Shown: positions 166-11,592 of the stretch, one piece after another | How positions within the stretch are numbered: position 1 is the stretch's first letter | How the letters are laid out: every line of letters starts with the position of its first letter | NCBI GenBank assembly: GCA_965371515.1 | Contig: CBDUYR010000068.1 | Location: 1-11,592, forward strand | Source: an uncultured bacterium | GTDB taxonomy: Bacteria; Krumholzibacteriota; Krumholzibacteriia; Krumholzibacteriales; Krumholzibacteriaceae | DNA length: 11,592 nt | Reading direction: 5' to 3' | Notes under the pieces: generated by a model | The model's database searches: none | Seen by the model: only the letters and a program-made list of their open reading frames with translations | What the model was told of the DNA's origin: nothing | Made by a program: the position numbers and the translations under genes

Positions 166-1317
166 ATGAGCGACGAGAAAACGAAGGGCAGGAAACTCCA
201 GGACAAGGACGCCAGGTCGGCGATCAGGGCGTTTGTCAGGGAGTCTATAGAGAAGGGTGTCATCGATGCGGCTCTCATGCCTGTGAGGGTCCCGGCTGGC
301 GATTCTTATGCCTGGATACTCATGAAGGATCCCGAAATAGTCGATGCTGCAAATCCGCTGGCACCGGTGATGCCGGTCCAGGGTGCAAAAGCCCTGAAGG
401 CTCTTACACGAAAGGGAGAGGGAAGCATCAAGGTTCTTGCCCTGATGAGGCCTTGTGAGGTGAAGGCGTCGATCGAGTTGACCAAGTTCAATCAGGTCCA
501 CCTGGACAACATTATCCTTGCAAGCTACGACTGCCCCGGCGCAGTTCCTCTGAAAGACTTTACGGAGGATCCTGAAGGCGCCGAGAAGAAGTTCGAAGAG
601 TTCCTCGGTGAAGAGGAAAGGATCACTGATGGAGTAAAGAAAGTCTGCAACGTCTGCACCGATTTCTCCTTCGTCGATTCAGATATACATTTCGGAAGAT
701 ACGGAACTGGTGGAGAGACGATCGTCATCTGCCGCAGCGGGAAGGGTGCCGCATTTCTCGAAGAGGCTGGAATCGGAAGCGATACAGATACATCGGCCTG
801 GAGAGAGAAGGCGGAGAAGCTGACAAGCAAAGCGCAAGAGGTGAGGAACGCATCGGCGGCGGAAATCGGTTCGATGATCCAGGGCCTCGAGGGTATGGTC
901 AGGACATTTGCCAACTGTATAGGGTGCCACAACTGTCAGAGCGTGTGTCCGATCTGCTACTGTCGGCAGTGTTACTACGACTCGGAGGTCGCAGTCCCGG
1001 AACCCGACTCCGTCCACGACAAGGCCGGGATAAGGGGAGGGATCTCCTTTCCGCGCGATCGTGTGCTCTTTCACACGGGGCGCATGGCTCATATGACGCT
1101 TTCATGCGTCTCTTGCGGTCAGTGCACCGACGCGTGCCCCGTATTCATCCCCGTCGCGAGCGTATTTGGCTATATGGCTGACCAGGCGCAGCCGGTATTT
1201 GAGTACAGGGCCGGGGTGAACGACGGTGTCGCCGTGCCGCTGAGACGGTTCCAGGAAGACGAGGTCCCTCTCGTGAAGGAACTCCTCGAGGAAACGGAAG
1301 AGGAGACGCATACATGA
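166..1317 (+). CDS. FdhB/FlxC-like iron-sulfur protein (FrhB/FdhB-family N-terminal domain plus C-terminal 4Fe-4S dicluster), paralog 1
   Basis: 383 aa. RPCE...YDCPG...CNVC cluster motif set, CIGCHNCQSVCPICYCRQC and FHxGRMAH...CVSCGQCTDACP, as in FdhB/FlxC proteins. AGGA upstream at 156-159. Confidence 0.85.
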   Translation: MSDEKTKGRKLQDKDARSAIRAFVRESIEKGVIDAALMPVRVPAGDSYAWILMKDPEIVDAANPLAPVMPVQGAKALKALTRKGEGSIKVLALMRPCEVKASIELTKFNQVHLDNIILASYDCPGAVPLKDFTEDPEGAEKKFEEFLGEEERITDGVKKVCNVCTDFSFVDSDIHFGRYGTGGETIVICRSGKGAAFLEEAGIGSDTDTSAWREKAEKLTSKAQEVRNASAAEIGSMIQGLEGMVRTFANCIGCHNCQSVCPICYCRQCYYDSEVAVPEPDSVHDKAGIRGGISFPRDRVLFHTGRMAHMTLSCVSCGQCTDACPVFIPVASVFGYMADQAQPVFEYRAGVNDGVAVPLRRFQEDEVPLVKELLEETEEETHT

Positions 1318-2414
1318 GTAGCATGAGGATCGCCAGAGAGCCAAACCAGGCGGTGACTGATTATCTGCGGCATCTTCTCACGAGCGGAAAGGCTGGAGCG
1401 GTATTGACCCTGCGCCGGAGTGAAGAAACTGGTTCGTACGATTACGGGTTGATCACAGATCCCGATGGTCTGGAGTACGCAGCTCCTCTCGATCCTGTCA
1501 TGCCGGTGAACGGGGGCGAGGTGCTCAAAGAGGTCACGCCCTCGAAGGTCAAGATCGCCGCGGTGCTGAGACCATGCGAGGTCCGGGCGTTCGTCGAGCT
1601 GGTCAAGCGTGAGCAGGGTTCAATGGAAAACGTTATGATCATATCCCAGACCTGTAGTGGAACTTATCCTCTCCAGATGGCTGCTAACAGGACGCTGGAA
1701 GGAAAGCTCCCCGAATATTTCGAGGTCGCTGCCGAAGGCGAGATCCCCGAAGGGATCAGGCCCACATGCGCCGCGTGCGAACATTTCATTCCCGGGAATA
1801 CAGATATTACAGTATCGCTGGCCGGCGAGAAGGATTCAGCCGAATCGTGCCTCCTTTACTTCAACACGGAGGAGGGTGCGTCATCGGCCGAGGGATTCGA
1901 GGGCCTCAAGACAAATGGAGAATACGATCCAGGTATGGTCGCGGAACTTCTCGAAAAGCGCCTCAAGGCGAAGGAAGAACTGTATGCCTCGATGATGGAC
2001 GGAAAGAAGGGATTAGACGCTCTAGTCGATACCTTCGGTAAATGCGTAGGATGTCACGGTTGCGGGCATGTCTGCCCGATCTGCTACTGTGTCATGTGTG
2101 ATTTCGAGTCACGAAATTTCGACTACGACATGCCGTATTTCGAGAAGGAGCTCGATCAGAAGAATGCGCTGAGGCTTCCGCCCGATACGATCTTTTTCCA
2201 TCTCGGAAGGTTGACGCACATGAGTTTCTCGTGCGTAGGCTGCGGGCTCTGCTCGGATGTCTGCCCCGTGGATATCCCCGTATCTCAGGTATTCAAGAGG
2301 ACGGGGGAGCAGACTGCGGGGTTGTTCGAGTATGTCGCCGGCAGAGACCTGGAAGAGCCGATACCCGTGCTGGTGTTCAAGGAAGATGAATTTCTCGAAA
2401 TTGGCGAGGACTAG
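1314..2414 (+). CDS. FdhB/FlxC-like iron-sulfur protein, paralog 2
   Basis: 366 aa. RPCE...QTCSG...CAAC, CVGCHGCGHVCPICYCVMC, FHLGRLTHMSFSCVGCGLCSDVCP. ATGA overlap with the previous gene, AGGAG at 1301-1305. Colinear with paralog 1 (PLAPVMPVQG vs PLDPVMPVNG). Confidence 0.85.
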   Translation: MSSMRIAREPNQAVTDYLRHLLTSGKAGAVLTLRRSEETGSYDYGLITDPDGLEYAAPLDPVMPVNGGEVLKEVTPSKVKIAAVLRPCEVRAFVELVKREQGSMENVMIISQTCSGTYPLQMAANRTLEGKLPEYFEVAAEGEIPEGIRPTCAACEHFIPGNTDITVSLAGEKDSAESCLLYFNTEEGASSAEGFEGLKTNGEYDPGMVAELLEKRLKAKEELYASMMDGKKGLDALVDTFGKCVGCHGCGHVCPICYCVMCDFESRNFDYDMPYFEKELDQKNALRLPPDTIFFHLGRLTHMSFSCVGCGLCSDVCPVDIPVSQVFKRTGEQTAGLFEYVAGRDLEEPIPVLVFKEDEFLEIGED

Positions 2415-2418
2415 TGAA

Positions 2419-2844
2419 ATGAGCGATGAATTCGCCCCGAAGATTACAGCGTTTCTCTGCAAGTGGTGCTCGTATACCGGCGCCGACCTGGCAGGAACGA
2501 GCAGGATGCAGTACCCGACCTCGATCATTCCTATTCTGGTCATGTGTTCGAGCAGGGTCGATCCCGTTTTTATCATCAAGGCGTACCTGAAGGGCGCAGA
2601 CGGTGTTCTCCTCGGTGGGTGTCATCCGGGCGACTGCCATTACGAGGTGGGTAACTATCACACGCGGAGGCGTTTCGCGATAGTGAAGACGATCTTCGAA
2701 TCGCTCGGACTCGAGGCTGAGAGGCTCAAGCTCTCGTGGATCTCCGCGTCGGAAGGGCCGAAGTTCGCCAGGGTCAGCAACGAGTTCACCGAGAAAATAA
2801 AGGAAATGGGCGAGAATCCAGTCCGGAAAAGCATGTTCTTGTAG
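2419..2844 (+). CDS. mvhD: MvhD-like [2Fe-2S] hydrogenase iron-sulfur (delta) subunit, copy 1
   Basis: From ATG 2419 (MSDEFAPKITAFLCKWCSYTGADLAGTSR, 141 aa), with CSSRVD, GCHPGDCHY, GN and WISASEG motifs. The ORF-track start at 2257 overlaps the previous gene by 158 nt and is unlikely. Confidence 0.92.
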   Translation: MSDEFAPKITAFLCKWCSYTGADLAGTSRMQYPTSIIPILVMCSSRVDPVFIIKAYLKGADGVLLGGCHPGDCHYEVGNYHTRRRFAIVKTIFESLGLEAERLKLSWISASEGPKFARVSNEFTEKIKEMGENPVRKSMFL

Positions 2845-2866: not shown

Positions 2867-5800
2867 ATGATCAAGAAGAGCAAATCGGTTCTGGTCGTCG
2901 GAGCGGGAATCGCCGGTATACAGGCGTCGCTCGATCTCGCCGAACTCGGCGTGGACGTCCATCTCATCGAGGATACTCCCTCGATCGGCGGGCGGATGCC
3001 GCAGCTCGACAAGACATTTCCGACTAACGACTGCTCAATGTGTATACTCTCTCCCAAGATGAGCGAAGTGATCCGTCATCCGAGGATCATCCTTCATATC
3101 AACTCGTCGCTCGACTCTATCTCTGGTGACCCTGGAGACTTCACCTGTACGATAACGCAGAGAGCCACGTACGTCGATGCAGAGAAATGTGTATCCTGCG
3201 GGCTCTGCGAAGAGAAGTGTCCCGTAAAGGTGGACGATATATTTGATACCGGTCTGAGGAAGAGGAAGGCGATATCGCGCTACTTCCTCCAGAGTATCCC
3301 CTCTGAATACACGATTGACAGGGACAACTGCCTCTTCCTCACGAAGGGCGTCTGCAAACTCTGCGAAAAGGTATGCCCGGCCGATGCGATAAACTACGAG
3401 GATGAGGACAGGGAGATCGAGCTCAATGTAGGATCGGTGATCCTTTCGACAGGCATCGACCCGTTCGATCCGATCGGTTTCGGCCACTTTGGCTACCATC
3501 GTTTCGATAACGTAGTTACCTCGCTGGAGTACGAGAGGATGCTCTCGGCCTCCGGTCCTCTGGGCGGCCATGTGGAAAGAGCGTCCGACGGGAAGGAACC
3601 GAAGAAGATTGCATTCATCCAGTGCGTCGGATCGCGCGACGAGAGCATCGACAAGAACTACTGCTCGTCGGCCTGCTGTATGTTTGCCATAAAGCAGGCG
3701 ATTATTTCGAAGGAGCACATCAAGGATCTCGAGCCGACGATCTTCTACATGGACATCAGAGCGTTCGGCAAGGATTTCGACAAGTACTACGACAAGGCGG
3801 AAAACCAGTACGGCGTGAGATTCGTGCGCTCGAAAGTGGCAGATATCAATGAAACGAAAAACGGTGACCTGCGGCTGAGGTTTGTATTCGAGAACGGAGA
3901 TGTAACATACGAAGACTTTGATATGGTCATCCTCGCGATCGGTCTTCAACCCAGGAAGGGGACCGAGGATCTTTCGAGGACCGTCGGCGTCAAGCTCAAC
4001 GAGTTCGGTTTCTGCAGGTCGGACACGTTCACGCCCCTCCAGACGACCCGCGAGGGCATCTACGTATGCGGCGCGATGAACGCTCCAAAGGATATCCCCG
4101 AATCGGTCATCTCTGCGTCGGGTGCAGTCGCCAATGCGGCCAAGTTTCTCAAGATCGAGCGTCAGGACAGGACCAACGACCCCGATGCTGTCCCGGAGAA
4201 GGACGTAAAAGGAGACAGGCCCAGAGTCGGCGTCTTCGTCTGTCACTGCGGGATCAACATAGCCGGTGTTGTAGATGTAAAGGACGTCGCGTCTTACGCC
4301 GGCAAACTCGAAAATGTCGAGCACTCGGAGGACGTCATCTACGCCTGTTCGACCGACTGTCTCGAGACGATAAAGAAACGGATCGAAGAACACGATCTCA
4401 ACAGGGTGATAGTGGCTGCCTGTACGCCGAGGACGCACGAGCCACTCTTCAGGGAGACTGCCGCCGAGGCAGGTCTCAATCCATACCTCGTCGAGATGTC
4501 CAACATCAGGGACCAGTGCTCATGGGCGCATATGGATGAGCCGGAGCTGGCCACTGTCAAGTCGAAGGACCTAGTGGAGATGATGGTCGCCAAGGCGAGG
4601 GGGCTCGAGCCTCTCGAGCGCCTGCCGGTCGAGATCGATCCGAAGGCCCTGGTGATAGGAGGCGGCCTGTCGGGAATGAACGCTGCTCTGTCGCTCGCCG
4701 AAGCAGGACACGACGTCTTCCTCGTTGAGAAGGAGAAGGAACTCGGAGGCAATCTCAGGAACATCTTCTTCAACTTCGACGATACCGATCCGCAGGAGTA
4801 CCTTGCCGACCTGGTCCGCCGCATCAAATCGAACAAGAGGATAAGGGTGTTCAAGAGCTCGCTCGTCGAGCAGGTTCTCGGGTATGTAGGGAATTTTGTG
4901 ACCACGGTGAAGGACACGGAGACCGGCGGTTCAGAGACCGTTGAGCACGGGGTTGTGATCGTGGCGACGGGAGGAGAGGAGCATACGACGGAGGAGTACT
5001 TTTACGGTCAGTCAACAAGGATCGTCAGCCAGGTCGAGTTCGAGAGGATGATTCACGAGGGGAATTTCCCAGTTGGACGTCTCAACAACGTGGTCGTTAT
5101 CCAGTGCGTCGGTTCACGTGAAGAGGGCAGGATGTACTGCAGCAGGGTTTGCTGCACCAAGGCTGTGAAGAACTCGCTCGAGCTGAAGAAAATCAAGCCT
5201 GCGACGAACGTATTTATTGCCTATCGCGATATGAGGACATACGGCTTCAGGGAGAAATACTACACGAAACTACGAGACGAGGGCGCGGTATTCATGCGGT
5301 ATTCGCCCGACAGGAAACCGGTTGTCGAGCTGCTCGACGCGGCAAATCCCGACAGCAGGGCCCGGGTGACGATGTTCGATCCGATTCTAGACGGCGAGGT
5401 TGCGGTCGACGCAGACCTTGTTGTCCTGTCTACTGCGATCGACGCTCCGGAGAGCAACAGTGTATTGGCGAAGATGCTCAAGGTGCCGCTGAACACCGAC
5501 GGTATATTTCTCGAGGCGCATGTGAAACTCCGGCCGGTTGATTTTGCGACGGAAGGAATATTTGTCTGCGGACTCGCCCACGGGCCGAAGGATATGAACG
5601 AATCGATCGCGCAGTCGAAAGCTGCGGCTAGCAGAGCGATGACTTTCCTCAACCAGAAGTCGATATTGGCTGAGGGAACTATCTGCCGTGTCAGGGAAGA
5701 CAGATGCTCAGGCTGTGCGTACTGCGAATCCATCTGCGCGTACGCAGCAATAGAGGTCGACCCTGAGAAGCAGGTCGCCGTCGTGAACGAGGCCCTATGC

Positions 5801-5926
5801 AAGGGATGCGGCGCATGCGTGGCCTCATGCCGGTGCGGGGCGCTTGATCTGCGTGGGTTCAGTAATGATCAGCTCTTCTCGGTATTCGAGTCGCTCGAGA
5901 TGGCGGCAGTGGAGGAGTCGGAATAG
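2867..5926 (+). CDS. hdrA: Large double-module HdrA-like flavo-iron-sulfur protein (two FAD domains; BamE-like size and architecture)
   Basis: 1019 aa. Module 1: [19 protein letters not shown], inserted ferredoxin (CVSCGLCEEKCP; CKLCEKVCP), CVGSR...CSSACC, PKDIPESV. Module 2: VGVFVCHCG...AACTPRTHE...NIRDQCSWAH, GGGLSG, CVGSR...CSRVCC, EAHVKLRPVDF, GLAHGPK, and a C-terminal 2x[4Fe-4S] domain. Confidence 0.95.
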   Translation: MIKKSKSVLVVGAGIAGIQASLDLAELGVDVHLIEDTPSIGGRMPQLDKTFPTNDCSMCILSPKMSEVIRHPRIILHINSSLDSISGDPGDFTCTITQRATYVDAEKCVSCGLCEEKCPVKVDDIFDTGLRKRKAISRYFLQSIPSEYTIDRDNCLFLTKGVCKLCEKVCPADAINYEDEDREIELNVGSVILSTGIDPFDPIGFGHFGYHRFDNVVTSLEYERMLSASGPLGGHVERASDGKEPKKIAFIQCVGSRDESIDKNYCSSACCMFAIKQAIISKEHIKDLEPTIFYMDIRAFGKDFDKYYDKAENQYGVRFVRSKVADINETKNGDLRLRFVFENGDVTYEDFDMVILAIGLQPRKGTEDLSRTVGVKLNEFGFCRSDTFTPLQTTREGIYVCGAMNAPKDIPESVISASGAVANAAKFLKIERQDRTNDPDAVPEKDVKGDRPRVGVFVCHCGINIAGVVDVKDVASYAGKLENVEHSEDVIYACSTDCLETIKKRIEEHDLNRVIVAACTPRTHEPLFRETAAEAGLNPYLVEMSNIRDQCSWAHMDEPELATVKSKDLVEMMVAKARGLEPLERLPVEIDPKALVIGGGLSGMNAALSLAEAGHDVFLVEKEKELGGNLRNIFFNFDDTDPQEYLADLVRRIKSNKRIRVFKSSLVEQVLGYVGNFVTTVKDTETGGSETVEHGVVIVATGGEEHTTEEYFYGQSTRIVSQVEFERMIHEGNFPVGRLNNVVVIQCVGSREEGRMYCSRVCCTKAVKNSLELKKIKPATNVFIAYRDMRTYGFREKYYTKLRDEGAVFMRYSPDRKPVVELLDAANPDSRARVTMFDPILDGEVAVDADLVVLSTAIDAPESNSVLAKMLKVPLNTDGIFLEAHVKLRPVDFATEGIFVCGLAHGPKDMNESIAQSKAAASRAMTFLNQKSILAEGTICRVREDRCSGCAYCESICAYAAIEVDPEKQVAVVNEALCKGCGACVASCRCGALDLRGFSNDQLFSVFESLEMAAVEESE
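5911..5917 (+). promoter_or_regulatory. Shine-Dalgarno site for flxD/mvhD, embedded in the hdrA 3' end
   Basis: GGAGGAG ends 9 nt before ATG 5927. Confidence 0.6.
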
Positions 5927-6346
5927 ATGAAGGAATGGCAGCCGAAGATACTGGCGATACTCTGCAACTGGTGCTCTTACGCGGGAGCTGACCTGGCAGG
6001 AGTTTCAAGGATACAGTACCCGGCGAACATCCGGGTGGTAAAGGTCCCCTGCTCGGGCCGGGTCGATCCACTGTTCATCATGAAGAGCCTGCAGAGCGGT
6101 TATGACGGTATCCTGATTTCGGGATGCCACCCGGGCGACTGTCATTACCTTTCTGGCAATTACGTTGCGAGGAGACGGTTCGCCGTGCTCAAGCCCCTGC
6201 TCGAATTCATCGGGATCGAACCGGACAGGGTCCAGTTCTCCTGGATCTCTGCGGGGGAGGGCGAGAGGTTCGCTCAGGTCGTTACGAAGGTTACAGAAGA
6301 CGTCAAGAAACTCGGTCCGGCAACAAGGCTGGTCAAACAGATATGA
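5927..6346 (+). CDS. flxD: MvhD-like [2Fe-2S] subunit, copy 2 (FlxD position in flxDCBA)
   Basis: 139 aa. LCNWCSYAGADLAG, PCSGRVD, GCHPGDCHY, WISAGEG. GGAGGAG at 5911-5917. Directly precedes flxC-flxB-flxA-like genes. Confidence 0.9.
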   Translation: MKEWQPKILAILCNWCSYAGADLAGVSRIQYPANIRVVKVPCSGRVDPLFIMKSLQSGYDGILISGCHPGDCHYLSGNYVARRRFAVLKPLLEFIGIEPDRVQFSWISAGEGERFAQVVTKVTEDVKKLGPATRLVKQI

Positions 6347-7314
6347 ACGTAAATCAGAAATTGAGAGAAGCAGCGAAGAAATTGCTCGCCGAAGGCAGGG
6401 CCGACGTGGTCATAGGATGGGGCCGGGGATCACTTTCGATGTCATCGACCCCGATATTCGCTGCGACGGAGGAAGAGGCGGATGGACTCATTTTCGACGC
6501 TACATGCGGGTCCAACCTTACCGTCTATTTCACGAAGGACAAGCGGCAGATTGCCTCTGACGGCAAGAAGGCTGCGGTCGTTGTGAAGGGCTGCGACGCC
6601 AGGTCAATTGTGCTGAATATCAAGGAACGCCAGATAAAGAGGGAAGACGTGATCGTCATCGGCGTTCCATGCGACGGAATCATAGACAGGAGCAAGATCT
6701 CGGAAATGACCGGCGGGAGGGAGATCCTCGAGTTCTCCGACAACGGGGCGAAGATCTCGGTAAAGGGGAGGGATTTCGAGCTGGATATTCCGCGGGAGGA
6801 TGTCCTCAGCGATTCCTGTCTCTCATGCGCTCATCCGGACGCCGGGATGTCCGACATCTTCGTCGGCGAACATCGTGAAAGCGGCGAAGGGAAGGATCAG
6901 TACGCAGCGGTGGAGGAATTCGAGAAACTTTCCATCTCGGAAAGGTGGGAGAGAATACAGCAGGAGTACTCGAAATGCATAAGATGCTACGCCTGCCGTA
7001 ACGTTTGCCCGTCGTGCTATTGCAACGAGTGTTTCGTCGATCAGAACGATCCGCAGTGGATAGGGAAGACGCTGGATTTCAGCGATACGATGATATTTCA
7101 CGTAATAAGGAACCTGCACGTCGCCGGGCGATGTGTCGAGTGCGGTTCGTGCGAGAGGGCGTGCCCGATGGATATCAAGCTTCTTCTGCTGAACCGCAAG
7201 GTCGCGAAAGAAGTCGCCGAGAGGTTCGGGATGGAGACAGGCGTCGATCAGGAAGCGAAACCGGCCATGTCCGATTTCAGGGAAGACGAGAAGCAGGATT
7301 TCATAATGGGGTAG
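6343..7314 (+). CDS. flxC: FlxC-like 4Fe-4S protein
   Basis: From ATG 6343 (ATGA overlap with flxD; MNVNQKLREAAKKLL, 323 aa). KGCD...GVPCDG...CLSC, CIRCYACRNVCPSCYCNECF, FHVIRNLHVAGRCVECGSCERACP. The ORF-track start at 6124 lies inside flxD. Confidence 0.85.
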   Translation: MNVNQKLREAAKKLLAEGRADVVIGWGRGSLSMSSTPIFAATEEEADGLIFDATCGSNLTVYFTKDKRQIASDGKKAAVVVKGCDARSIVLNIKERQIKREDVIVIGVPCDGIIDRSKISEMTGGREILEFSDNGAKISVKGRDFELDIPREDVLSDSCLSCAHPDAGMSDIFVGEHRESGEGKDQYAAVEEFEKLSISERWERIQQEYSKCIRCYACRNVCPSCYCNECFVDQNDPQWIGKTLDFSDTMIFHVIRNLHVAGRCVECGSCERACPMDIKLLLLNRKVAKEVAERFGMETGVDQEAKPAMSDFREDEKQDFIMG

Positions 7315-7318
7315 GGCT

Positions 7319-8344
7319 ATGATAAGGCTCGACAGTAAGGGATTCGAAAAATTTATCGAAGAGCTCGCCGGGGCTTACACCCTCTTCGCTCCCGTTATGA
7401 AGGGCGGCAAGCAGGTGTTCGGCGTGATCTCTTCGGCTGAAGATATCGATTCATCGCGCCTCAACACGGAGAGATCGCCGAAGGAGATATTCTTTCCTCA
7501 TTCCGAGGTTCTCTTTGAATACGACGAGAACGGGATCAGAACCGCTGGAGGGGAGGAGAAGCCGATTGCTGTCTGGGGGATGCGGGGTTGCGACGCGAGA
7601 AGCCTTCCGATGCTCGATAAGGTGTTCGGCAGCGAGGGCGAGAGGCCTGCCAACCTTCGTTTCGACGACCCATACTGGAGTGGGCGTTATGACAAGTCAC
7701 TAGTCTTCTCCATGGCCTGCAACGAGCCTCTTTCAACCTGCTTCTGCAACTGGTTCGATAGCGGGCCGCACGACCGGAAGGGCGCCGACGTATTTGTCGT
7801 CGACACGGGGGATGTCTTGCTCATGGAACCGGTCAGCGAGAAGGGCGAAGAGTATCTGAAAAAATTGAAAGACGCGAAGAAAGCAACGAAGAAGGACGAA
7901 GAGAAGGCATCGGCGCTTGCCGTTGAAGCAGAAGAGATGCTGAGCGAGCGGACTGACATTGACGGACTGAACGAAAAGCTGAAAGAAATCTTTCACAAGC
8001 CGGTCTGGGACGCGGTCAGCGCCAAGTGCGTCAACTGCGGTGCCTGCTCGTTCACGTGCTCGACCTGCCACTGTTTCGACATACAGGATGAAGGCAGGAG
8101 AGGGCGTGGAAAGAGGATCAGGATATGGGACACGTGCATGTTCCCGGTCTTCACGAAGGAGGCTTCGGGTCATAATCCCAGGGTGCTATCCAAGGAACGC
8201 GTCCGGCAGCGCGTCATGCACAAGTACAGTTATTTCGTGGATAATCACGGCGAGTTCCTCTGCACGGGGTGCGGCCGGTGCGTTGCCGTATGCCCCGTCA
8301 ACCTCGATATCAGGGAAGTGATCAGAGAGGTGCTGGCCTCCTGA
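7319..8344 (+). CDS. flxB: FlxB-like (AsrA/sulfhydrogenase beta family) 4Fe-4S protein
   Basis: 341 aa. SPKEIFFP, RGCDA, DPYW, CNEPLSTCFC, CVNCGACSFTCSTCHCFD, WDTCM, RVRQRVMHK, CTGCGRCVAVCP. Confidence 0.85.
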   Translation: MIRLDSKGFEKFIEELAGAYTLFAPVMKGGKQVFGVISSAEDIDSSRLNTERSPKEIFFPHSEVLFEYDENGIRTAGGEEKPIAVWGMRGCDARSLPMLDKVFGSEGERPANLRFDDPYWSGRYDKSLVFSMACNEPLSTCFCNWFDSGPHDRKGADVFVVDTGDVLLMEPVSEKGEEYLKKLKDAKKATKKDEEKASALAVEAEEMLSERTDIDGLNEKLKEIFHKPVWDAVSAKCVNCGACSFTCSTCHCFDIQDEGRRGRGKRIRIWDTCMFPVFTKEASGHNPRVLSKERVRQRVMHKYSYFVDNHGEFLCTGCGRCVAVCPVNLDIREVIREVLAS

Positions 8345-8360
8345 GGACAAGGACGTTCGG

Positions 8361-9194
8361 ATGAGCAATACATATTTGCCCATACAGATGAAAGTCGACG
8401 GGATAGTCGTAGAGGACCCTGCCAAAACGCTAAGGACCTTCGATCTCACTTTTGTCAGCGATGATGACCGCAAAGCGTTCAAATACATGCCGGGACAGTT
8501 CTGCGAGTTATCGATTCTCGGCAAGGGCGAGTCGCCGTTCGGTATCGCTTCCTCTCCTACAGAAGAGGGATTCCTGCGCTTTACGGTGAGCAGGACAGGC
8601 TCGGTGACCAATGAGATACATTACCTCAGGAAAGGTGATACGGTTGGTATACGTGGGCCCCTGGGTAATTGGTATCCAGTCGAAAAATTCAAGGGAGAGA
8701 ACGTTGTCATTGTCGGCGGTGGTTTCGCCTTCACCACGCTGCGCTCGCTTATAGTCTACATGCTCGAACACCGGGGTGACTATGGAGACATCACCGTCAT
8801 ATACGGTGCGCGAACTCCCGACCTCTTCATATACAAGGACCAGCTTGAGGATTGGAAGGGCAGGGACGACATAGCTCTGCATCTGACGATCGACAACCCC
8901 GTGGACGGATGGGACGGGCTGACAGGATTCGTCCCCGCTGTGACAAAGGATATATCGCCGAGCCCGGAGAAGGCGTGGGTCGTGCTCTGCGGGCCGCCGA
9001 TCATGATCAAGTACACACTGCCCGTGATCTCGGATCTTGGCTTTACGGACGAGAGAGTATACACGTCGCTAGAACGGCGCATGAAATGCGGAATAGGCAA
9101 ATGCGGAAGATGCAACATCGGCTCGCGCTATATATGCGCTGACGGGCCGGTGTTCTCGATGGCCGAAATCGAGGATATTCCTGAGACTGTGTAG
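8361..9194 (+). CDS. flxA: FlxA-like FAD/NAD(H)-binding oxidoreductase with C-terminal [2Fe-2S] cluster (PyrK/AsrB family)
   Basis: 277 aa. PGQF, GESPFGIASSP, RGPLGN, GGGFAFTTLRS, YGAR, CGPPIM, ERRMKCGIGKCGRC...CADGPVF. AAGGA at 8349-8353. Confidence 0.9.
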   Translation: MSNTYLPIQMKVDGIVVEDPAKTLRTFDLTFVSDDDRKAFKYMPGQFCELSILGKGESPFGIASSPTEEGFLRFTVSRTGSVTNEIHYLRKGDTVGIRGPLGNWYPVEKFKGENVVIVGGGFAFTTLRSLIVYMLEHRGDYGDITVIYGARTPDLFIYKDQLEDWKGRDDIALHLTIDNPVDGWDGLTGFVPAVTKDISPSPEKAWVVLCGPPIMIKYTLPVISDLGFTDERVYTSLERRMKCGIGKCGRCNIGSRYICADGPVFSMAEIEDIPETV

Positions 9195-9210: not shown

Positions 9211-9684
9211 ATGGAAAAGATAATACTGAGCGAGAAGGATCCCCACTTCAAGAACGAGGTGGCTTCGAAACCCGGCGCTGAAGCGTTCATGCGCTGCTTC
9301 ACCTGCGGCACCTGCACCGCTTCATGTCCCGTGGCTGAGGTCCACGACGAATACGATCCGAGAAAGATCATAAGGATGACCATTCTCGGAATGCGCGAGG
9401 AAGTTCTCTCCTCCGACATCTTATGGATGTGCTCGAGGTGCTACACCTGCCATGCTCTCTGCCCCCAGAATGTCAAGTTCACCGACGTTATAGCCATACT
9501 CAGGGAGATGGCTATAAAGGAGGGGTACGCGCCTAAGGAAAGGTACGAGGAGGCGAGGGAGCTCGACAAAATGATACAGGAATTAAGATGCAGGATCATC
9601 AACAACAAACTGCATCCGAAAAAGAAACAGGTGGACGAGATCAAGGCCATCGTCGAGGAAGAGCTCGGCGAGGAATGGGCGTAG
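9211..9684 (+). CDS. hdrC: HdrC-like 2x[4Fe-4S] protein
   Basis: 157 aa. CFTCGTCTASCP, YDPRKIIRMTILG, WMCSRCYTCHALCPQNVKFTDVIAILREMAIKEG. AAGGAG at 9196-9201. Confidence 0.88.
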   Translation: MEKIILSEKDPHFKNEVASKPGAEAFMRCFTCGTCTASCPVAEVHDEYDPRKIIRMTILGMREEVLSSDILWMCSRCYTCHALCPQNVKFTDVIAILREMAIKEGYAPKERYEEARELDKMIQELRCRIINNKLHPKKKQVDEIKAIVEEELGEEWA

Positions 9685-9693
9685 CGGGATAAA

Positions 9694-10833
9694 ATGACAG
9701 GGGACGTCATGAATCAGGACAGGATCTGGTCGTTTACTGATCTCAGAAATGAAGTGATAGACGGGGGTATCTGCGGAAAGTGCGGCGGATGCGTTTCTTT
9801 CTGTTCGGCCAACAGGATCGGTGCCCTGAAGATCGGCGAGAACGGATTTCCCGCCTACGAAGACGAGGACAAGTGCCTCACGTGCGGGCTGTGCTACATG
9901 GTCTGCCCGCAGACCCATCCTCTGCAGGAAGAGGTCGACGCTGCATATAACTGGGAGCCGCCCATCGGCCATTTCACCGAGGTATTCTCGGCCCGCAGCG
10001 CTGATACGGAGATACTCGAGTCCGGCACAGACGGCGGGGTAGTCACCGCTCTACTGGTCCATCTCCTCGAAAACAGGTTTATAGACGGAGCGGCCGTATC
10101 GATATCAGAGGGTCCCTTAAAGAGAAAGGCTATTGTTGCCACCTCGAGGGAAGAACTCATCCAGGCCGCCGGATCTCACTGGGCCGAAGCGCCGCATCTC
10201 GAGGAGGTAGGAGCCGGATATACGAACTTCGTGCCGGTGATCAGGTCTATTCATGAACTCGAACCCAAGAAGTTGAAGAAGATCGCAGTGGTCGGTACGC
10301 CGTGCCAGATAGGCGCCGTAAGGAAGATGCAGGTGCTCAACATCGTTCCGTCGGATATTGTCGTGCTGACGATCGGTTTGTTCTGCATGCAATGCTTCGA
10401 GATAGACCGCCTGATGGACAAGAGCTTTATTAAGAACCACAATGTGACACGGGGTGACCTGGCAGGGGTGAACATCAAAGACGATTTCATGCTGAAACTC
10501 AAATCCGGGATAACCGTGCATGTTCCACTGGAGGAGATCGAGGAGATAGCAAGACCCGCCTGCCTGGCCTGCAAGCTCTTCGCCAACGATTACGCTGATA
10601 TCTCCGTTGGCGGGCTCGGCTCGCCGGACGGGTATACAACAGTTGTGATAAGGACGATCAACGGCAAGAGGATGTTCGCGGACGCCGTTTACGATGGAAG
10701 TATCGAGTACAGGACGAGAAGATCGATGAGCGATTACGCGGTGGAGATGAGCACGATCGTATCGCGGATAGTCGAATTCGCCGACAGGAAAAAGACACGG
10801 GGACTGAAATACAGGAAGCAGTTCAAGAGTTAA
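9694..10833 (+). CDS. FrhB/FpoF-like flavoprotein (coenzyme F420 hydrogenase/dehydrogenase beta family) with N-terminal 2x[4Fe-4S] domain
   Basis: 379 aa (alternative start ATG 9709). CGKCGGCVSFC and CLTCGLCYMVCP, then TDGGVVTALL, VGTPCQ, IGLFCMQCF, ACLAC and ADISVGGLGSPDGYTTVVIRT, which are FrhB-family signatures. Confidence 0.88.
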   Translation: MTGDVMNQDRIWSFTDLRNEVIDGGICGKCGGCVSFCSANRIGALKIGENGFPAYEDEDKCLTCGLCYMVCPQTHPLQEEVDAAYNWEPPIGHFTEVFSARSADTEILESGTDGGVVTALLVHLLENRFIDGAAVSISEGPLKRKAIVATSREELIQAAGSHWAEAPHLEEVGAGYTNFVPVIRSIHELEPKKLKKIAVVGTPCQIGAVRKMQVLNIVPSDIVVLTIGLFCMQCFEIDRLMDKSFIKNHNVTRGDLAGVNIKDDFMLKLKSGITVHVPLEEIEEIARPACLACKLFANDYADISVGGLGSPDGYTTVVIRTINGKRMFADAVYDGSIEYRTRRSMSDYAVEMSTIVSRIVEFADRKKTRGLKYRKQFKS

Positions 10834-10873
10834 AGGATGACTTGGAATAGAGATCGTACAGGAAAACGGTGTG

Positions 10874-11592
10874 ATGATCAAACAAACTAAAAAAGCAAAA
10901 TCAGGATCCGTTCTCGTTGTCGGTGGAGGGATTGCTGGTATCCAGTCGTCTCTGGATCTCGCAGAGTCCGGATTCAAGGTCTATCTGCTCGAGGAGACCC
11001 CGGCGATCGGTGGTACGATGGCGCAGCTCGATAAGACATTCCCGACCAACGACTGCGCGATGTGCGTTATCTCTCCAAAACTCGTCGGTGCCGGCAGACA
11101 CCTGAACATTGATCTGATCACAAACGCGGAACTGATAGGTGTGAGCGGTGAAGCGGGGAATTTCAAGGTGCAGGTCAAGAAAAAACCGAGATATGTCGAT
11201 TCCGAAAAATGCACCGGCTGCGGAGCCTGTGTAGAGGCGTGCCCGGTGAGCATGATCAGAACTCAAGTCGATCTCTCCGAGATCGATATCAGCAGAAAGG
11301 ACATTGAGGCTGTTGACCCCATACTGGCGAAGCACCAGAACCGCAAGGGAAACCTCATGCCGATACTTCAGGAGATCAACTATCACTATAATTATCTCCC
11401 GAAGCAGGTCCTTCGTTATGTTGCCGCGCAGCTTGCGTTGGATATAGCGTCGATATACAACATAGCCACATTTTACAGCTCGTTCAGCCTTGAGCCGAGG
11501 GGTAGACATAAGGTGAGCATCTGTATGGGGACAACATGTTATGTGAAGGGTGCCGAAAAGCTGCTGCAAAGAGTATGTGAGGAACTCGACAT
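10874..11592 (+). CDS. HdrA N-terminal module fused to a NuoE/HydC/HoxE-like [2Fe-2S] domain, 3' partial
   Basis: Manual translation from ATG 10874 (or GTG 10871; AGGA at 10860-10863), open to the window end: [30 protein letters not shown]...[19 protein letters not shown]...[20 protein letters not shown], then ...[30 protein letters not shown]...[38 protein letters not shown]. Missing from the ORF track because no stop is in the window. Confidence 0.9.

Follow-up and report, generated by a model that had tools for sequence, protein, structure and literature searches.

One of the closest described systems is class II benzoyl-CoA reductase, Bam[(BC)2DEFGHI]2 or 'Bam-Bfu'. As would be the case for the locus analysed here, BamE, an HdrA with two modules, and BamGHI, a module of the HydABC type, are held in one complex, and BfuA carries the clusters A1, A2 and A4 only (PMC9304861; bioRxiv 10.64898/2026.04.10.717634); in the latter, two distinct bifurcating modules in one oxidoreductase are given as unreported before it. 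A preliminary description of the present DNA had inferred the joining of two families of bifurcating enzymes, which is by itself no novelty, because benzoyl-CoA reductase II already joins them with separate subunits. Another related group consists of HdrL of Desulfobacterium autotrophicum (PMC2702500) and HdrA9-11 of ANME-1 with its NfnB insert (PMC9012536). According to these papers, an NAD(P)H module lies between the cluster motifs of the inserted ferredoxin and two bifurcation sites were proposed; the HdrA scaffolds belong to the same clades as those described below.

The BfuABC enzymes of types 1-4 (HydABC, NfnABC/StnABC, WorABCSL), as laid out in PMC9304861, share with this locus BfuC, a full BfuB and the N-terminal clusters of BfuA, and the cluster set of BfuA in the Bam/Wor clade is there given as being without the His-ligated A3. 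HdrABC-MvhAGD of methanogens (PDB 5ODC) resembles the locus in its HdrA core residues, MvhD adaptor, MvhAG neighbours and HdrC (with HdrB in 8 of 21 loci), but its inserted ferredoxin is whole and delivers electrons to ferredoxin, MvhB or FmdF, whereas here this domain is split. In D. phosphitoxidans, nuoEFG is clustered with hdrA and mvhD, as stated in PMC4046663.

The fusion gene and its surroundings

The window, i.e., the whole stretch of 11,592 nucleotides that was analysed, is the entire contig C68 of an uncultured member of the Krumholzibacteriaceae, so that its end is the end of the contig. The gene of interest (10874..11592, +) starts with ATG at 10874 (GTG at 10871) and runs without a stop up to the window end, which cuts it after 239 of about 291 codons; in the full-length, near-identical relatives (protein P0131, metagenome contig L104) the product has 291 residues, comprising HdrA residues 1 to about 125 and a HydC/BfuC domain. 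The open frame and all the motifs named in the preliminary description were found where it had placed them, and its reading of the first ~125 codons as the start of an HdrA was borne out: the HdrA profile NF040770 covers residues 7-128 (E 5e-49), and residues 1-127 are 58% identical to the intact double-module HdrA of 1019 residues encoded in the same window (2867..5926, +), which serves as the unsplit reference. This HdrA N-terminal piece (residues 1-126; 10874..11251, +) is the first part of the FAD-binding fold. It contains the GxGxxG dinucleotide-binding loop (residues 17-22; 10922..10939, +), in which G17, G19 and G22 are invariant among 51 aligned proteins, followed by DKTFPTxDCxxC (residues 53-64; 11030..11065, +), whose C61 and C64 correspond to HdrA Cys194 and Cys197 and are both kept in 121/121 sequences, and by CxxCxxCxxxCP (11210..11245, +), the first of the two cluster motifs of the HdrA inserted ferredoxin, with its four cysteines likewise in 121/121; all six cysteines of the piece are conserved throughout this set.

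The second inserted-ferredoxin motif is absent from the window protein, which has one 4Fe-4S motif only (residues 107-128). A variable linker with the junction (11246..11314, +), at which the two alleles C68 and C69 diverge, then leads into the [2Fe-2S] domain of the HydC/BfuC type (11315..11592, +), its last ~52 residues lying beyond the contig end. The expected NuoE-family match was obtained with PF01257 on residues 148-238 (E 6.6e-27, 94.6 bits against a cut-off of 24.8). Its first two [2Fe-2S] cysteines, C217 and C222, stand in the CMGTTC at 11522-11539, and the other two, C258 and C262, in the full-length relatives. An HdrA combines the FAD domain and the inserted 2[4Fe-4S] ferredoxin in a single polypeptide; here the 291-residue protein ends after BfuC, and the second motif is found in the third gene. 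When the N-piece protein was modelled by itself with AlphaFold2 (pTM 0.46), the BfuC block reached a pLDDT of 78-91, and the lone cluster motif (pLDDT 54-65) formed no ferredoxin fold.

The gene is cut by the contig end, and its junction is the point where a second allele departs from it, both of which would fit an assembly chimera, the objection foreseen in the preliminary description, or a decayed gene. Contig L104, however, spans the junction without a gap at 97.6% DNA identity to window positions 10727-11592, and L107 does so at 98.2% over 11042-11592, and since these independent assemblies cross it, the HdrA-N::BfuC fusion is real. In L104 the frame stops after 291 codons, with the start of a hydB-like gene directly behind, and the complete 291-residue P0131 (96% identity to the window protein where they overlap) belongs to a cluster whose 8 members come from ENA, NCBI and JGI. 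A search for proteins of nearly equal length, with the orthologue in genome G017 as the query, gave at least 120 of them (clusters at 90% identity), and among these matches listed all carry PF12831 together with PF01257 at a query coverage of 91-100%. With the same layout in so many clusters, chimera or decay is exceedingly improbable.

The cassette is found across many phyla. At 50% identity, 8 among the 150 representatives listed cover the whole profile; in its own phylum 8 of 201 genomes match at E 1e-60, and none of the 6 congeners does. A GTDB scan kept at least 77 loci, at least 14 of them with a fused or adjacent layout and all metagenome-assembled, and the fused or adjacent loci among the matches listed come from Desulfobacterota, Cloacimonadota, Acidobacteriota, Bacillota, Spirochaetota, Myxococcota, Glassbacteria and archaea. 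For the window clade, a long single chain was ruled out as the full form, since the relatives end this frame at 291-311 codons; some proteins are partly fused onward to BfuB (P0002, P0010, P0067, P0075), and a fully fused chain of at least 1909 residues was found in none of 1238 candidates, which is weak evidence. In one protein (P0080, 669 residues) HdrA-N::BfuC is fused behind a response-regulator/histidine-kinase protein, which could be a misassembly.

Upstream in the window, all on the forward strand, lie two FrhB/FdhB-like Fe-S proteins of the same gene run (166..2414, as 166-1317 and 1314-2414; PF04432), a second MvhD adaptor (2431..2844; PF02662, E 2.5e-51), the intact HdrA, an MvhD (FlpD) adaptor (5927..6346; PF02662, E 1e-54), an FlxC-like Fe-S subunit with an FrhB-type C-domain (6343..7314), an FlxB/AsrA-like Fe-S subunit (7319..8344) and an FlxA/AsrB-like FAD/NAD(P)-binding subunit (8361..9194). 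These are followed by an HdrC-like 2[4Fe-4S] protein with no adjoining hdrB (9211..9684; TIGR03290, E 4e-27, below the cut-off) and an FrhB/FpoF-like flavoprotein with N-terminal 2[4Fe-4S] (9694..10833; PF04422, PF04432), whose upstream position is conserved in the window clade. The Flx names for these neighbours are labels that we presume to apply, the families actually matched being AsrA/AsrB and FrhB-type. In the FlxABCD-HdrABC of Desulfovibrio, Flx neighbours occur as here, but the inserted ferredoxin is whole. The gene run in the window contains hdrC and an FrhB-like gene and no hdrB. F420 was considered as a partner of the FrhB-like protein and rejected, as no CofE match was found in the genome itself (99.6% complete).

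Contig C75 (C75:471-10316, locus L179) carries genes for an ArsR regulator, a sulfur transporter (PF04143), three rhodaneses, a porin, DsrE, MvhD and two HdrA proteins leading into the window; its end is overlapped by C68, at the start of that contig, and by C69, and its gene order is shared with genomes G061 and G087. Contigs C7 and C40 hold an HdrA with a GltD insert (902 residues) and a 649-residue HdrA, an hdrCBA-mvhDGA operon and another two-gene HdrA pair.

The remainder of HdrA in related loci

The preliminary description had asked whether nuoF- and nuoG-like genes follow, and in the relatives they do. The gene order there is HdrA-N::BfuC, (Trx) BfuB, and then a protein of 1074-1111 residues in which the remainder of a double-module HdrA is fused behind a BfuA-like N-terminus (BfuA'). 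This BfuA'::HdrA-C is the third gene in 25 of the 26 loci long enough to reach it, the exception being L116, where the third gene stops after 144 codons; several of the loci are close kin, so the 25 are not a count of independent cases. The assembly of the genome under study lacks bfuB and the beginning of the third gene, and no contig in it overlaps the end of C68, so both are inferred from these relatives. Another contig of this genome, C84, begins inside a C-piece (78.9% identity to that of G017) and carries the YCSSVCCMYAMK motif. It is closer to the clade of the C69 type (79-86%) than to L115/L106 (73%) and for this reason may belong to the other allele.

The two HdrA pieces are complementary, since the C-piece begins where the N-piece stops: residues 12-127 of P0131 match 145-260 of 5ODC chain A, and the C-piece resumes at 256. 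The equivalents of Lys409 and Glu356 and the [4Fe-4S] ligands of the TrxR domain are found in the separate C-piece, also on the genome's own C84, and not in the window protein. Besides C64, the counterpart of Cys197, a ligand of the shuttle cluster according to PMC9012536, the other ligands of that cluster are located in the C-piece. Of the two cluster motifs of the inserted ferredoxin, each HdrA piece carries one, the second being present in 23 of 24 C-pieces by pattern reading, which missed BfuB in L024, L025 and L031 and the C-piece in L029 (all detected by BLAST) and left L168 and L169 outside the annotation. HdrA is thus very probably split around a BfuC-BfuB-BfuA' cassette within its inserted ferredoxin, and, judged from the distribution of these ligands, the FAD, the shuttle cluster and both inserted-ferredoxin clusters would be bound by residues of both pieces. 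The earlier proposal that a HdrA flavin module is wired to a NuoEF(G)-type module survives in that the modules are tied; the window protein itself, however, supplies only ~125 HdrA residues, and the rest is fused behind BfuA' two genes on.

The HdrA type of 650 residues is split at the same point (L030, L031). In L032, L051 and L062 the unfused state is seen, a short HdrA N-piece gene being followed by a separate bfuC; there an in-frame TGA stands at the second cysteine of NDCAMC, the Cys197 position, and probably encodes selenocysteine. Genes with CBS, PHP and ATPase domains are located between bfuB and bfuA'::hdrA-C in L016, L020, L023, L025 and L103. Such genes also occur in hydrogenase operons, hinting at the source of the cassette. 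In G017 and G061 the cassette is followed directly by an Flx-like pair, a 596-residue molybdopterin-fold-like protein and a membrane-bound group 4-type hydrogenase cluster (L018:12114-20000), and in the genome of the window the same pair, 596-residue protein and hydrogenase cluster are found on another contig, C18:29000-43700 (-).

By sequence, the inserted genes match the bifurcating type. The preliminary assignment of the [2Fe-2S] domain as NuoE/HydC/HoxE-type was right as to the NuoE family and is narrowed to HydC/BfuC: its best solved matches, by sequence and by fold, are HydC, NfnC and StnA, all ranking above complex I NuoE. An identity as complex I NuoE was ruled out, given that the partner is a HydB-type subunit of 596-655 residues and that no nuo membrane arm lies between the cassette genes. 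BfuB of L115 scores 615-763 bits against the bifurcating HydB, NfnB, StnB and WorB, and at most 412 against NuoF or FdsB, and the relatives' BfuB proteins have the FMN site, N-terminal Trx, Zn/B2 site and, in 22 of 25, the motifs of two C-terminal [4Fe-4S] clusters. Published work sorts BfuB into 57 clades; no signature residues for BfuB turned up in the literature, and none are used here as a test. BfuA' matches 9mqx_A over residues 4-188 and has the clusters A1, A2 and A4; two 4Fe-4S motifs are seen in 24/24, the [2Fe-2S] pattern in 23/24, and in none of the 24 a His-ligated A3. In L026, L030, L172 and protein P0010, BfuB has a GltD/NfnB-like domain in place of the C-terminal ferredoxin, a third flavin module in the cassette.

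It could be argued that one module only bifurcates, the cassette being a plain NADH diaphorase or HdrA a passive conduit. Sequence motifs are no proof of bifurcation, not every HdrA flavin bifurcates (the second FAD of BamE does not), and a GltD-like domain replaces the ferredoxin-binding end in 3 of 25 BfuB proteins. Both C-terminal cluster motifs are nevertheless kept in the other 22, and every checkable ligand of both bifurcating centres is retained, which makes a single bifurcating module very unlikely.

A proposed order of two bifurcations

The working mode that we put at slightly better than even is a serial one, Hdr first and Bfu second. The two HdrA pieces would reassemble into one enzyme that passes its low-potential electron to the Bfu module, not to free ferredoxin. 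By analogy with HdrA structures, two electrons would enter via MvhD, from NADH through Flx in the window clade and from H2 through MvhAG elsewhere, and the HdrA FAD would send one of them to the HdrC branch and the other via the inserted ferredoxin into BfuA'; BfuBC would then, as in Bfu enzymes, split those electrons between ferredoxin and NAD+. The high-potential acceptor in the window clade might be a protein-bound persulfide or the FrhB-like protein, which is a guess, although a sulfur carrier is plausible because the sulfur transporter, the three rhodaneses and DsrE lie upstream on C75.

Two observations favour this order. The inserted ferredoxin is the low-potential exit of HdrA, as described in PMC9012536, PMC12350162 and bioRxiv 10.64898/2026.04.10.717634, and the cassette is tethered there, by both of its ends, with tethers of ~20 and ~15 residues. 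The input arm is also kept: of 21 loci, 13 have MvhD directly behind the C-piece and 6 (the window clade) have it upstream, the remaining 2 ending at a contig border; among the same 21, MvhG/A adjoin the cassette in 5, while Flx A/B-like genes occur in 8 and hdrB in 8. That the cassette is covalently attached close to the inserted ferredoxin is no proof that electrons pass there, and the tether could be structural, with the Bfu arm feeding the input side of HdrA, as in benzoyl-CoA reductase II, and the inserted ferredoxin serving an outside acceptor. The only structurally solved Hdr+Bfu complex is wired so, BfuA' has the Bam-like cluster set without a His-ligated A3 in 24/24, and five loci of the window clade have no MvhD directly after the third gene. 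Both tethers end at the inserted ferredoxin, however, and most loci retain MvhD plus Flx or MvhAG, by which the input is already supplied; an input-side Bfu arm is therefore regarded as quite unlikely.

The same wiring could also be run backwards, so that BfuBC merges electrons of NADH and reduced ferredoxin into the inserted ferredoxin and HdrA joins these with thiol-derived electrons for the reduction of NAD+ via Flx or of protons via MvhAG. Both modules are reversible, confurcation has been proposed for the HdrA-NfnB insert in PMC9012536, and BamGHI operates as a confurcating unit. With Flx on the MvhD arm, however, NADH would be both consumed and made, which is useful only as a thiol-oxidising device, and no dsr-type or methanogenic partner was seen in the gene run of the window, so that reverse running is considered unlikely.

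In the serial Hdr-then-Bfu mode, HdrA would face a low-potential acceptor of about -390 mV instead of -500 mV, and ferredoxin could be reduced by weaker donors at a lower yield, with a net stoichiometry of 3 NADH + 2 disulfide + 2 Fd. The potentials used are -280 mV for NADH, -500 mV for ferredoxin and -140 mV for the disulfide (given in PMC9304861). In an illustrative calculation with textbook values, the donor must lie below -320 mV for one stage and below -265 mV for two; NADH-driven ferredoxin reduction with a disulfide at -140 mV would likewise, for illustration, come to +15 kJ with one stage and -12 kJ with two, and the illustrative H2 threshold would move from ~67 Pa to ~1 Pa, roughly 70-fold lower. 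If the mode is true, ferredoxin would be reduced from NADH, or from H2 at a ~70-fold lower pressure than one stage allows, a testable explanation of how anaerobes living close to the energy limit might get reduced ferredoxin out of weak donors.

Possible mobility of the cassette and comparison with known enzymes

The same bin holds a second allele, C69, which is 87.6% identical to C68 over 11.2 kb. The encoded HdrA-N pieces are 91% identical and the BfuC parts only 61%; the DNA identity falls at the cluster motif, and over the linker and BfuC part C69 is richer in AT (GC 0.38 vs 0.48). Between the two alleles, a swap at the 4Fe-4S motif has exchanged the linker and BfuC. Both forms are natural, since L104 has the C68 form and L116 the C69 form; C68 and C69 may represent strains or paralogues.

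In an HdrA core tree ('quick' search, with 80 of the 84 rows retained) the split forms are interleaved with HdrL and intact HdrA, and the C84 piece belongs to a group, supported at 100%, that comprises 9 split rows and 5 of HdrL. A single origin of the split scaffolds as one clade was tested on 32 rows and rejected by the AU test (p-AU 7e-73 with 15 rows and 7e-40 with 13), for which the group was defined beforehand and the rows were picked from the 80-row tree after viewing, both trees being 'quick' searches. An aldehyde oxidoreductase (tungsten-type) is likewise split around a Bfu cassette in the same genome (C25:6676-11880 (-), locus L182), as AFOR_N::BfuC::BfuB of 1068 residues and BfuA'::AFOR_C of 665 residues, followed by a ThiF gene. 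It is a tentative idea, held at a little under even, that bfuCBA' is a mobile cassette, spliced into the low-potential exit of HdrA and, in this genome, into the aldehyde oxidoreductase, that has given rise to a widespread and undescribed class of two-stage bifurcating enzymes, with Hdr upstream of Bfu and four redox pools (donor, disulfide, NAD and ferredoxin).

The earlier statement that HdrL-type proteins have another insert proved accurate, and the domain that it interrupts is the same: the insertion point is at residues 152-172 in the HdrL type and at ~121-125 here (numbering of the window's intact HdrA). HdrL is a single chain of ~1480 residues with a GltD/NfnB insert, whereas the insert here is BfuC-B-A', a three-gene cassette of the FMN type that breaks the chain. 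A full-text literature search whose scope included passages of PMC11237513, PMC10553843, PMC6037941, PMC11406978, PMC12018979 and PMC11216029 gave no account of an HdrA that is split and joined to Bfu subunits; the HdrA survey of Appel et al. 2021 (PMID 33460586) lies outside it and could contain the type. Section 5 of PMC9304861 has no member with BfuA fused to HdrA, nor a BfuC with an N-terminal enzyme fragment. The split of HdrA and the attachment point of Bfu look to be the undescribed elements, and the split-HdrA cassette would formally be classed as Type 1, 'Hdr-Bfu'. In many genomes this enzyme goes unnoticed, because public sources label the proteins as 'NADH:ubiquinone oxidoreductase subunit E', and its naturally split HdrA is a handle on the low-potential electron path.

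The comparison with benzoyl-CoA reductase II brings out the difference. There, BamE is one chain and BamG and BamI are separate subunits, whereas here HdrA is split and Bfu is fused to it; there, Bfu feeds the input via BamF and the inserted ferredoxin exits to BamBC, whereas here Bfu is fused at the inserted ferredoxin. Among the neighbours of the cassette, as annotated against the reference set of this analysis, no gene resembling BamB or BamC was seen. The proposed Hdr-then-Bfu order is likely the reverse of that in benzoyl-CoA reductase II, and two energy-coupling devices are likely wired in series in many uncultured anaerobes. If true, this would be a second and far more widespread case of two bifurcating modules, hard-wired by fusion and working in the opposite order.
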